Source: an uncultured Alphaproteobacteria bacterium (GTDB lineage: Bacteria > Pseudomonadota > Alphaproteobacteria > MPNO01 > UBA830). From it: 64,000 nucleotides of DNA. A program made the position numbers and the translations under genes. Under the pieces are notes generated by a model, which saw only the letters and a program-made list of their open reading frames with translations, was not told the origin of the DNA and ran no database searches. Below, piece by piece: positions 7,268 through 11,368 of this stretch. Where the stretch lies: NCBI GenBank assembly GCA_913046035.1, contig CAJWSW010000002.1, positions 4,046 to 68,045 on the forward strand, given 5' to 3'. How positions within the stretch are numbered: position 1 is the first letter of the stretch; every line of letters starts with the position of its first letter.

Positions 7268-8080
7268 CTAGCCCGGCTCTTCTCTTCGCAGGCGACCGCC
7301 AATTCGAACTGGACAGATATGAGTCGCGAGGCCCGTTTTATCATCGGTATCTACAAGGATGGCACAGAGAGTGGCCTCACCTTGGGCTGCCTCCATTCGA
7401 GCAGTAGGCATTTTCCGGACGAACCGTTCGACCGAAATTTCTTTACGAATACCTATTACAGAATCGTAATCGCCACACATTCCAATATCGGTAATGTAGC
7501 CAGTGCCACTGGGGAATATTTGGGCGTCAGCTGTAGGTATGTGGGTGTGAGTGCCCACGACCACTGAAACTCGGCCATCTAAGAAGTGACCCATAGCCAT
7601 TTTTTCGCTGGATGCCTCGCCATGAAAATCAAGTACGATGGCCTGAGCATTTGAACCAAGACGCCACGTTTCCAGCATATTTTCGACAGCGGCAAATGGG
7701 TCGTCGAGAGGATCCATAAATAATCGCGCCATCAGTTGAACAACCACGACGCCTCGGCCTTGGGCATCTGCAAGCCTTGAAATACCCTTGCCAGGGGTGC
7801 CTTTTGGAAAATTAGCAGGCCTCAAAATACGCGGCTCTTTATCAAAATGGGGGATAATCTCTCTCTGATCCCAAACATGGTTGCCAGTGGTAATCGCGTC
7901 AGCACCCGCTTCAAAAAATTCATCACAAATTTTAGGGGTAATTCCAAACCCTCCTGCAGCGTTCTCACCGTTAATGATCACGAAATCTACTCGATAGCGG
8001 TCACGCAGCTTCGGCAGGTGTTGGGCAATAGCCTTGCGACCGGATCGGCCCACGACGTCACCGCAAATCAAAATACGCAT
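7268..8080 (-). CDS. YmdB-like metallophosphoesterase (TIGR00282 family)
   Basis: MRILICGDVVGRSGRKA...FVIINGENAAGGFGIT... metal-binding motifs of the YmdB family. Confidence 0.8.
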   Translation of the reverse strand: MRILICGDVVGRSGRKAIAQHLPKLRDRYRVDFVIINGENAAGGFGITPKICDEFFEAGADAITTGNHVWDQREIIPHFDKEPRILRPANFPKGTPGKGISRLADAQGRGVVVVQLMARLFMDPLDDPFAAVENMLETWRLGSNAQAIVLDFHGEASSEKMAMGHFLDGRVSVVVGTHTHIPTADAQIFPSGTGYITDIGMCGDYDSVIGIRKEISVERFVRKMPTARMEAAQGEATLCAILVDTDDKTGLATHICPVRIGGRLRREEPG

Positions 8081-8716
8081 TTAAACGACAAATCCCTCTT
8101 TTTTGGCACTTGGGATGAGAACTCGCTTATCGGTAAGAATTAAGTCGAGTGGCTCGTCAAGCGGATGGGTGGGTATCTTAGCGCATTCCTGTTCCTCGTA
8201 ACCTACCCCGACGGCATCAACATTCCCGCATGCCCGCAGTGATTGGAGTGTACGATCATAATAGCCGCCACCATAGCCGATGCGATTTCCATGTGCATCA
8301 AAGCCCAATAAAGGCACGATTATCAGATCAGGAACCGCGTCAGTTCGCCTTGGGTGTGGCTCCTGCACGCCAAAAGCGGCATCAACAAGCTCATCACCAG
8401 GAAACCATCGGCGAAAGCTCTGTAGAGATGTGCTATCATTCATTACAGGTAATGCTGTGACTACCCCTTGCGAAGCCAAATCGTAAAGAATAGGCCGAAC
8501 GTCAATTTCATCTTTTAAAGGCCAATATGCCGCGACAGTTGAACCTGAGAGCTTCCCTCCAAAACGATCGACAAACAAATTATGCAGTCCAATTTTGGCA
8601 GTCGCGCAACGCGCCTTGTGAACATTATTTCGCCTTCGACGCAACTCTACCCGGAGTCTTAATTTTTCACGTTCAATGAAATCACAGCCAGAACTCAAAG
8701 CGATACCCTTTTTCAC
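8081..8716 (-). CDS. ygfA: 5-formyltetrahydrofolate cyclo-ligase
   Basis: C-terminal GYGGGYYDRTL motif, 211 aa. Confidence 0.85.
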   Translation of the reverse strand: MKKGIALSSGCDFIEREKLRLRVELRRRRNNVHKARCATAKIGLHNLFVDRFGGKLSGSTVAAYWPLKDEIDVRPILYDLASQGVVTALPVMNDSTSLQSFRRWFPGDELVDAAFGVQEPHPRRTDAVPDLIIVPLLGFDAHGNRIGYGGGYYDRTLQSLRACGNVDAVGVGYEEQECAKIPTHPLDEPLDLILTDKRVLIPSAKKEGFVV

Positions 8717-8721
8717 TTAAG

Positions 8722-8886
8722 TTGGCGGAGCCGTCTTGGTCGTTCGTCAATATGATCCTCTGCGGCCTGCACGAGACAGGTGGGCACCGCATGTCGGGAC
8801 CAAGACCCCGACAGAGACAGTTCCCGAGAGAGTTGTATTGGCCCCAGGGATGCAAGGACGTGTCGCACCAGACAGCACCGCCGGAT
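8722..8886 (-). ncRNA. ssrS: Candidate 6S RNA (ssrS) in the conserved zapA-ssrS-ygfA arrangement
   Basis: A 239-nt non-coding gap between zapA and ygfA on the same strand. Minus-strand 5' segment CCGGCGGTGCTGTC (plus 8871-8884) can pair 11/12 with 3' segment GACGGCTCCGCC (plus 8724-8735), giving a closing stem about 165 nt apart. An internal GTCGGGGTCTTGGTCCCGAC hairpin sits on the 3' side of the putative central bubble. Boundaries are approximate. Confidence 0.45.
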
Positions 8887-8955
8887 TTCAAAATAGGACA
8901 TAAATTGTTCTCGGGAAATAAACTTTAATGCGTTTGTTGTACCGGGCTAGACAAT

Positions 8956-9276
8956 TTAAGCGAAACGCTGCGTGACAATTTCTATGCGGGTAGCAGCATC
9001 ATTCACGATACTGGCCAGCTTTGCCTCTGCCTCTTTTAAAGATACCGCAACGTCATCCGTTTTTTTAAGATTGGCGTGCACCTGAGCCAGTTCATCTGAA
9101 ATCATAAGGGCCGTCATAACCAAAAGTCTGGTGTCTCCCACTTGCCCTATGGATGACACCAGCTCCTGAACACGTTTTTCAAGATACTCACCAAGCTCTG
9201 CCAAGCGGGCTTCTTGGCCGTCATCGCAGATAATCTGATAATTTTTCCCGTTTACAGTAACTTCCACCTGTGACAT
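8956..9276 (-). CDS. zapA: Cell division protein ZapA
   Basis: 106 aa, MSQVEVTVNGKNYQIICDDGQEARLAELGEYLEKRV... ZapA fold signature. Confidence 0.8.
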   Translation of the reverse strand: MSQVEVTVNGKNYQIICDDGQEARLAELGEYLEKRVQELVSSIGQVGDTRLLVMTALMISDELAQVHANLKKTDDVAVSLKEAEAKLASIVNDAATRIEIVTQRFA

Positions 9277-9277
9277 G

Positions 9278-9502
9278 TCAATTTTCCAGAATGCTTTTTA
9301 TCCTCTGGATGGTATCATCAAGCTTTTCTGCCATAGATTTATTCAGAGCACGCAATTTACCCACTTCGGCCCGCGCCGCTTTCAAATCATCCTCTATCGG
9401 ATTCTGCGATGGAGAGACACCTCCGGGAGTTGCGCCCGCCGCCGCCTCAAGCGCCGAGAGCGCGCGGTTAAGGCGCTTTTCCGCTTCATCTAATTTCGAC
9501 AC
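9278..9502 (-). CDS. Small coiled-coil protein, ZauP/ZapB-like partner of ZapA
   Basis: 74 aa, entirely heptad-like (LDEAEKRLNRALSALEAAAG...). Lies 1 nt upstream of zapA on the same strand. Confidence 0.5.
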   Translation of the reverse strand: MSKLDEAEKRLNRALSALEAAAGATPGGVSPSQNPIEDDLKAARAEVGKLRALNKSMAEKLDDTIQRIKSILEN

Positions 9503-10723: not shown

Positions 10724-11368
10724 ATGCGCGCCGAAACTTGCCAGCTTTATTTAATTACGCCGCCAACATTCGGGACGGGTGGCGCTGTAGCATTTGCGGA
10801 TACCCTGGCCGCAGCTCTCGACGCGGGAGAGGTAGCCTGCGTGCAACTTCGGCTTAAAGGCGTTACAGATTCAGAAATACGACGCGCCACCGAAATAATC
10901 TGCCCGGTGGCTCAAGAGCGCGACGTCGCCTTTATTATTAACGATCGTGCCGACCTCGCCGCTGAAATGGGCTGCGACGGAGTTCATGTTGGCCAAGAAG
11001 ACACACCCTATGACGAAGCTCGGCGGCTGGTAGGCGGTGAAGCCATTGTGGGCGTAACATGCAAAGCTTCTAGAGAACTTGCATTTGAGGCTGGAGATGC
11101 CGGAGCCGACTACGTAGCCTTTGGAGCGTTTTTTGCGTCCACCACTAAGGCAATCACAACGCCTGCTGATATAAAGATTCTGTCATGGTGGCAGGAGGTA
11201 ATGACTGTACCCTGTGTCGCCATCGGCGGTATCACCATTAATAATTGCGACGCAGTAATCGATGCAGGTGCCGATTTTCTTGCCGTCTCGGCAGGGGTCT
11301 GGGATTACGAGGGTGGTCCGGCAAAGGCGGTCAAAGCATTTAATTCAAAGATATTTAATCGCAACTGA
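10724..11368 (+). CDS. thiE: Thiamine-phosphate synthase
   Basis: 214 aa, VQLRLKG...AFIINDRADLAAEMGCDGVHVGQED matches ThiE. Confidence 0.85.
   Translation: MRAETCQLYLITPPTFGTGGAVAFADTLAAALDAGEVACVQLRLKGVTDSEIRRATEIICPVAQERDVAFIINDRADLAAEMGCDGVHVGQEDTPYDEARRLVGGEAIVGVTCKASRELAFEAGDAGADYVAFGAFFASTTKAITTPADIKILSWWQEVMTVPCVAIGGITINNCDAVIDAGADFLAVSAGVWDYEGGPAKAVKAFNSKIFNRN

Follow-up and report, generated by a model that had tools for sequence, protein, structure and literature searches.

The stretch of DNA analyzed here (64 kb; hereafter, the window) carries a row of minus-strand genes in which a 239-nt gap separates zapA from the gene for 5-formyltetrahydrofolate cyclo-ligase. The features of this locus are listed below in the direction of transcription, with the evidence for each in parentheses.

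9278-9502, minus strand: DUF4164 ORF, 74 aa, coiled-coil-like (PF13747, E 3.9e-07)
8956-9276, minus strand: zapA, cell division protein ZapA (PF05164, E 1e-18)
8890-8918, minus strand: predicted sigma-70-type ssrS promoter (comparison of upstream regions)
8724-8881, minus strand: 6S RNA (ssrS), RF00013 match, 158 nt, 62% GC (Rfam, our own model R1, fold)
8081-8716, minus strand: 5-formyltetrahydrofolate cyclo-ligase, ygfA/fau (PF01812, E 6.8e-35)
7268-8080, minus strand: YmdB-like metallophosphoesterase gene (PF13277, E 1.5e-103)

According to ORF calls and Pfam, the gap occupies exactly positions 8717 to 8955 and both flanking genes lie on the minus strand, as given in a preliminary description of this DNA. 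The cyclo-ligase gene has an alternative start codon (TTG at 8698, with AAAGGG before it); if this is the true start, the gap is 18 nt longer. The distance from the 3' end of the 6S RNA to the cyclo-ligase ORF is 8 nt for the start at GTG 8716 and 26 nt for that at TTG 8698. On the other side of the gap, the DUF4164 ORF adjoins zapA, with its stop codon ending at 9278 and the zapA ATG at 9276. ARAGORN retrieved no tRNA genes from the 64-kb window. Farther upstream, a thiamine-phosphate synthase-like ORF lies at 10724-11368 on the plus strand; its counterpart in related loci carries PF02581, and the Rfam scan of the window at gathering thresholds found no TPP riboswitch before it.

Family assignment and related loci

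The whole 64-kb window was scanned against all 4227 Rfam families at their gathering thresholds. The covariance model RF00013 (6S RNA) matched positions 8724-8881 of the minus strand with 65.0 bits (gathering score, 46.4; E 1.4e-10), and no other family reached its gathering threshold within the window. The match spans model positions 1 to 187 of 187 and is thus not truncated. An Infernal search with RF00013 had been the first check named in the preliminary description, which proposed a 6S RNA in this gap; its outcome is a full-length match above threshold. The score of the window RNA under RF00013 is modest compared with that of Escherichia coli 6S RNA (65 versus 140 bits). A covariance model of our own, R1, which was built from RF00013-matched sequences of related loci, gave the window RNA 158 bits; this was the single match, with no second 6S copy found by R1 within the 64-kb window. 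The GC content of the RNA is 62%, against about 50% for the window. The mature RNA probably extends from 8724 to 8881-8883, and its length of 158 nt in the Rfam match (159 nt if G8882 pairs with C8724) is near the size of about 165 nt that had been predicted. All defining traits of the 6S family that can be tested on sequence are present in the window RNA.

Related loci were collected by way of the cyclo-ligase. This protein has no exact copy on record, and its nearest homologues (95 to 82% identity) come from ENA/TARA marine metagenome assemblies. The close homologues that carry a name are called only "Alphaproteobacteria bacterium" or "Rhodospirillales bacterium"; among GTDB species-representative genomes, the best cyclo-ligase identity is 40 to 47%. 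The resulting set comprised 87 loci: 7 close-relative contigs (L081-L083, L087, and L089-L091) and 80 loci from GTDB genomes, obtained with a cyclo-ligase profile. All seven close-relative contigs share the order DeoC (minus strand) followed by DUF4164, ZapA, gap, cyclo-ligase, and YmdB-like phosphoesterase. Among the 40 loci scanned first, RF00013 was found above threshold just upstream of the cyclo-ligase gene and co-oriented with it in 31, including 7/7 close relatives. R1 added 25 6S RNAs among the remaining loci, for a total of 56/87. A length of 153 to 165 nt and a short apical arm are common to all 57 alphaproteobacterial sequences (the window and the 56 loci).

The linkage of ssrS with ygfA, which the preliminary description had invoked as widely conserved, is borne out both by the annotation of zapA, ssrS, and fau in E. 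coli K-12 and by the recurrence of the arrangement in the relatives fetched here. According to PMC7641849, ZapA and EVE genes flank ssrS in beta- and gammaproteobacteria "but not in alpha-proteobacteria." In our set, no fewer than 38 of the 56 loci have a ZapA-like ORF directly upstream of the 6S RNA (single-query tblastn, a lower bound); thus, at least the ZapA half of the linkage extends to Alphaproteobacteria, and the locus set as a whole indicates that the zapA-ssrS-ygfA linkage is common in this class.

Among the loci without a match are those of Rhodobacterales and Pelagibacteraceae, the few beta- and gammaproteobacterial contigs, several other alphaproteobacterial contigs, and contigs that are too short upstream. 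In no locus of Rhodobacterales (L035, L047-L049, L051, L054, L057, L058, L060, L066, L068, L070-L072, and L080) or Pelagibacteraceae (L069, L073, L075, L078, and L079) did R1 detect a 6S RNA within 3 kb of the cyclo-ligase gene. In these two groups, it appears that either the ssrS-ygfA linkage is broken or the 6S RNA is too divergent for R1.

Two further regularities concern the neighboring genes. The YmdB-like gene begins at the base directly after the cyclo-ligase stop codon in the window and in every close relative (listed for L081, L083, L087, and L089-L091). The DUF4164 ORF is kept directly upstream of zapA in all close relatives. In Caulobacter, the ZapA partner ZauP is encoded just upstream of zapA. 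On that basis, the array DUF4164-zapA-ssrS-ygfA may correspond in Alphaproteobacteria to zapB-zapA-ssrS-ygfA, an array described for beta- and gammaproteobacteria (PMC7641849).

Secondary structure, covariation, and competing explanations

RNA folding was another check named in the preliminary description, and the minimum-free-energy (MFE) fold of the window RNA is a single long rod of the 6S type. At -72.5 kcal/mol, it is more stable than every one of 200 dinucleotide shuffles (mean, -55.7 kcal/mol; z, -4.28; 0/200 equal it). The parts of the RNA, numbered from its modeled 5' end, are as follows.

8864-8881, minus strand: closing stem, 5' strand (nt 1-18), pairing with 8742-8725 (fold and covariation)
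8840-8850, minus strand: internal ("downstream") helix, 5' strand UCCCUGGGGCC (nt 32-42) (Rfam alignment, fold, helices 3 and 4)
8826-8839, minus strand: central bubble, 5' side AAUACAACUCUCUC (nt 43-56) (Rfam model position)
8782-8825, minus strand: terminal ("upstream") arm, with stem nt 57-65/92-100 (GGGAACUGU / GCGGUGCCC) (fold, RNAalifold, covariation)
8766-8781, minus strand: central bubble, 3' side, with CCCACCU and the latent hairpin CCUGU-CUCGU-GCAGG (nt 102-116) (alignment, RNAalifold)
8724-8742, minus strand: closing stem, 3' strand (nt 140-158), including GACGGCTCCGCC (fold and covariation)

Three motifs had been singled out in the preliminary description, and each occurs once, on the minus strand. 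Two of them, CCGGCGGTGCTGTC (8884-8871, minus strand) and GACGGCTCCGCC (8735-8724, minus strand), which are separated by 135 nt, had been proposed as a closing stem and are indeed paired in the MFE fold; G8882-C8724 is a possible extra closing pair. The internal-helix strand UCCCUGGGGCC pairs with 8767-8756 and is the predicted template for the short product RNA (pRNA) discussed below. From the Rfam alignment and the fold, the central bubble consists of nt 43-56 and 101-114. The unconstrained MFE structure puts three weak pairs inside it, and forcing the bubble open costs just 1.4 kcal/mol.

The third motif, GTCGGGGTCTTGGTCCCGAC (8812-8793), was misassigned. It had been taken for the hairpin on the 3' side of the central bubble but belongs to the tip of the terminal stem, where it is the core of the apical hairpin (nt 69-90) that caps the terminal arm. 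The Rfam alignment agrees, placing the GUCGGGGUCUUGGUCCCGAC hairpin (8812-8793) at the tip of the terminal arm and leaving model positions of about 80 to 113 deleted. The true hairpin of the 3' bubble half is CCUGUCUCGUGCAGG (8780-8766, minus strand; CCUGU/CUCGU/GCAGG), which is supported by covariation.

Covariation was assessed on a MAFFT alignment of 32 6S RNAs that had not been fitted to any structure. The pairs that the window RNA forms in the canonical 6S structure were projected onto this alignment and counted. Standard pairs occupied 86.2% of 1453 cells, compared with 37 to 47% when the 3' partners were slid by 1 to 3 columns, a large margin even though a structure taken from one member works somewhat in its favor. 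Compensatory double changes were seen at 30/46 pairs, versus 13 to 18 in the slid controls, and none of 500 column shuffles reached any of the five measures. The signal extends from the closing stem (helix 1; 16 pairs, 10 of them compensatory, with 82% of cells paired) to the terminal arm, where helix 5 is paired in 100% of cells with compensatory changes at 5/8 pairs and helix 6 has them at 6/8 pairs. The closing stem, the terminal stem, the apical hairpin, and the small hairpin on the 3' side of the bubble were each recovered at least in part in the RNAalifold consensus. For this last hairpin, RNAalifold on the 32-sequence alignment recorded changes from GC to AU in 8 sequences and from CG to UA in 5. 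Across the same 32 sequences, GGGA and CCCACCU, which lie on either side of the central bubble, are invariant, and GGCC in the bubble region is invariant or nearly so.

A structured element in this position might instead act in cis as a 5' leader on the cyclo-ligase mRNA, such as a folate-responsive riboswitch or attenuator, rather than as a free RNA. Just 8 to 26 nt, with no terminator in them, separate the end of the element from the cyclo-ligase start, so that one initial transcript would carry both. However, the Rfam scan of the window returned RF00013 alone and no riboswitch or leader family at threshold, and the architecture, the invariant bubble motifs, and the nucleotide equivalent to E. 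coli U44 all fit a 6S RNA. Co-transcription is, moreover, no obstacle to a free RNA: a passage of PMC7641849 cites ssrS-ygfA of E. coli as likewise co-transcribed, yet processed to free 6S RNA. We therefore consider a leader very improbable.

A protein-coding gap is less probable still. Mechanical ORFs of 43 to 69 aa overlap the gap on both strands in the ORF list, among them minus-strand ORFs of 62 aa (ATG at 8901) and 69 aa (TTG at 8891) and a plus-strand ORF of 68 aa, any one of which might encode a small protein. Against this, four close-relative loci carry a stop at codon 3 of the 62-aa frame and two carry stops in the 69-aa frame, while the plus-strand ORF of the close relatives lacks a start codon and is interrupted by stops. 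Length differences of 1 to 2 nt in L090 and L091 shift all frames, and the substitutions are of the kind that compensates for base pairing. The earlier statement that the gap holds no plausible ORF thus stands in substance, the mechanical ORFs being present but broken in close relatives, and sequence comparison argues that the small-protein reading is, in substance, refuted. A decayed ssrS remnant that kept the model match and lost expression or activity, as a weak -35 element (3/6) and a moderate score might suggest, is equally remote, given a core that is nearly invariant among eight relatives while the flanking intergenic sequence has freely diverged, pairing that is kept by compensatory changes, a conserved promoter -10 element, and no second copy within the window (R1).

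The family match, the rod fold, the covariation, and the synteny all agree that the gap holds a 6S RNA gene. We put at about 95% the probability that the element is an ordinary alphaproteobacterial ssrS gene, encoding an RNA of about 158 to 160 nt in the canonical zapA-ssrS-ygfA position. The main value of this assignment is correct annotation: what looks like an "empty" 239-nt gap is the gene of a global transcription regulator, and, the gap being a 6S gene, no ORF should be called there. The RNA itself is not novel. It is a known RNA, to which the window adds one instance in a marine alphaproteobacterium that is uncultured; routine annotation with Rfam would call it 6S, and it raises no new question.

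Transcription signals

The predicted ssrS promoter consists of a -35 element, TTTCCC (8918-8913), a 17-nt spacer, and a -10 element, TATTTT (8895-8890), that ends 8 nt before the modeled 5' end at 8881. C8896, directly before the -10 box, gives it the alphaproteobacterial form CTAnnT. The alphaproteobacterial sigma-70 consensus is CTTGAC-N17-CTATAT, and CTAnnT fits its -10 element. In eight close relatives, a conserved block, AAGTTGATTTCCCG...TG..CTA..T, stands directly upstream of the RNA, and the rest of the spacer is unalignable. In the wider set, an ungapped view of 32 upstream regions shows that most have the form (A/C)TTGCC-N16-17-CTA(n)(A/T)T. A CTANNT ending 4 to 16 nt before the modeled 5' end is present in 32/57 sequences; the expected number is 2.4, and none of 500 shuffles gave more than 7.

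A generic scan for sigma-70 promoters and terminators found neither on the minus strand between 8500 and 9600; the promoter was missed because its -35 element, TTTCCC, matches TTGACA at only 3/6 positions. The common form of this element in other alphaproteobacteria is TTGCC. The -35 was placed at ATTTCC/TTTCCC on the basis of the ATTGCC-N17-CTAnnT spacing in those bacteria. TTGATT/TTTATT (8922-8917) was considered as an alternative -35 and rejected, as it lies 20 nt from CTATTT.

From this arrangement, transcription is predicted to start at about 8881-8883, at or at most 2 nt from the modeled 5' end. Members of the 6S family are expressed as abundant, stable small RNAs of about 150 to 200 nt, and in the window the conserved promoter-like element may serve such expression. 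No T-run or terminator was found between the 6S RNA and the cyclo-ligase gene. This absence leads us to infer co-transcription with the cyclo-ligase gene, the polymerase probably running on into it, followed by formation of the 6S 3' end through processing or factor-dependent termination, as for ssrS-ygfA of E. coli. The cyclo-ligase gene is thus probably expressed through ssrS read-through, and in the window lineage a single transcription unit probably spans ssrS and the cyclo-ligase and YmdB genes.

The placement of these signals varies among the related loci. In many alphaproteobacteria, the final codons of zapA, which encode the conserved C terminus ...RIE.IA.RL..., also contain the ATTGCC of the 6S -35 element (L004, L006, L007, L011, L015, L016, L022, L025, L031, L034, L036, and L041), and the zapA stop codon lies in or beside the -10 box (cCTAaAT). 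The same bases seem to be constrained in these loci both as protein and as promoter. In the window lineage, the promoter is shifted into the intergenic spacer, about 40 to 65 nt downstream of the zapA stop codon. At the other end of the RNA, four Hyphomicrobiales-type loci (L009, L012, L017, and L020) have a T-rich run directly after the closing stem (e.g., CGCCACTTTTTCTTTT), and in these the stem might also serve as an intrinsic terminator. Such a run is absent after the closing stem in the window copy and in its close relatives.

Predicted function and comparison with known 6S RNAs

As an open-promoter mimic, the 6S RNA of E. coli binds the sigma-70 holoenzyme and is then used by the polymerase as a template for a short pRNA starting from U44 (PMC9670815, PMC8876501), the residue named as the pRNA start site (PMC9670815). 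Synthesis of the pRNA unzips the downstream helix, and the freed 3' strand joins with the 3' half of the bubble in a release-promoting hairpin (PMC9670815, PMC8876501). By homology with this system (PMC9670815, PMC8876501), RNA polymerase binding and pRNA synthesis may be expected of the window RNA.

Several features of the window RNA can be set against the E. coli model. Nucleotide 45 (U, at 8837) occupies the same Rfam model position as E. coli U44, a correspondence of position only. In constrained folding, blocking nt 38-45, which mimics an 8-mer pRNA, causes a hairpin of nt 102-106/112-116 to form, and this hairpin persists with longer pRNAs. Its two outer pairs, C102-G116 and C103-G115, use the same G residues as the uppermost pairs of the internal helix (C41-G116 and C42-G115), so that the two compete in the way demanded by the E. 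coli model. At 5 bp, the predicted release hairpin is shorter than the 9-bp hairpin of E. coli.

The following course would be consistent with these features. Transcribed from its own sigma-70-type promoter (TTTCCC / TATTTT), the rod would mimic an open promoter and occupy the active site of the housekeeping RNA polymerase holoenzyme, so dampening sigma-70-dependent transcription when growth slows; both steps are proposed by homology with E. coli. Upon a nutrient upshift, the polymerase would copy the RNA from U45 (8837) into a short pRNA, predicted to read 5'-AUUGGCCCCAGGG... and, more fully, 5'-AUUGGCCCCAGGGAUGCAAG, beginning with 5'-AUUGGCCCC; at a length of 8 to 20 nt, such pRNAs would be complementary to 8837-8856. 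The pRNA would unzip the internal helix and free G115 and G116, the 3'-bubble hairpin (8780-8766) would then form, and the 6S:pRNA complex would be released.

The likeness to E. coli 6S RNA (ssrS, b2911; RF00013) goes beyond membership in the same family by covariance model. The one-strand order zapA-ssrS-fau (5-FTHF cyclo-ligase) of E. coli K-12 is the same as in the window, and in both cases no terminator precedes the downstream gene. Both RNAs are rods with a central bubble that carries CCCUG.GCC.AU on its 5' side and CACCU on its 3' side, and the predicted window pRNA, AUUGGCCCCAGGG, resembles the E. coli pRNA, AUCGGCUCAGGGG. They differ in length (158 nt in the window versus 184 nt in E. 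coli), the apical arm of the window RNA being about 30 nt shorter (model positions of about 80 to 113). They also differ in where transcription starts, which is predicted to be at or within 2 nt of the modeled 5' end in the window and is 9 nt upstream for E. coli P1 (PMC9670815).

Bacillus subtilis 6S-1 belongs to the same mechanism class, being an open-promoter mimic that is released by pRNA synthesis. The three inner pairs of the 3'-bubble hairpin of the window RNA could pre-form in the free RNA, as is the case for 6S-1 (PMC8876501). The genomic context of 6S-1 is different, and in both sequence and context the window RNA is of the proteobacterial type.

A more specific reading with two parts can be built on these comparisons; we regard it as tentative and, on balance, unlikely. 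In its first part, which concerns the marine lineage of the window, the start of the primary transcript would be the mature 5' end, without 5' processing, and co-transcription with the cyclo-ligase and YmdB-like genes would be obligate, with formation of the 6S 3' end setting the expression of both genes. In its second part, release by way of the short, partly pre-formed 5-bp hairpin would fall between the E. coli type (9 bp, induced) and the B. subtilis type (pre-formed, short).

The 6S RNAs of other alphaproteobacteria (56 loci, e.g., L018 of Rhodopseudomonas palustris BisB18) fall into the same length class as the window RNA (153 to 165 nt) and share with it the short apical hairpin, the invariant CCCACCU, a CTAnnT -10 box located 6 to 16 nt upstream, and the position before the cyclo-ligase gene. 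An RNA from this class, sra56 of Sinorhizobium meliloti, has been experimentally detected and identified as a 6S analogue (PMC2245857).
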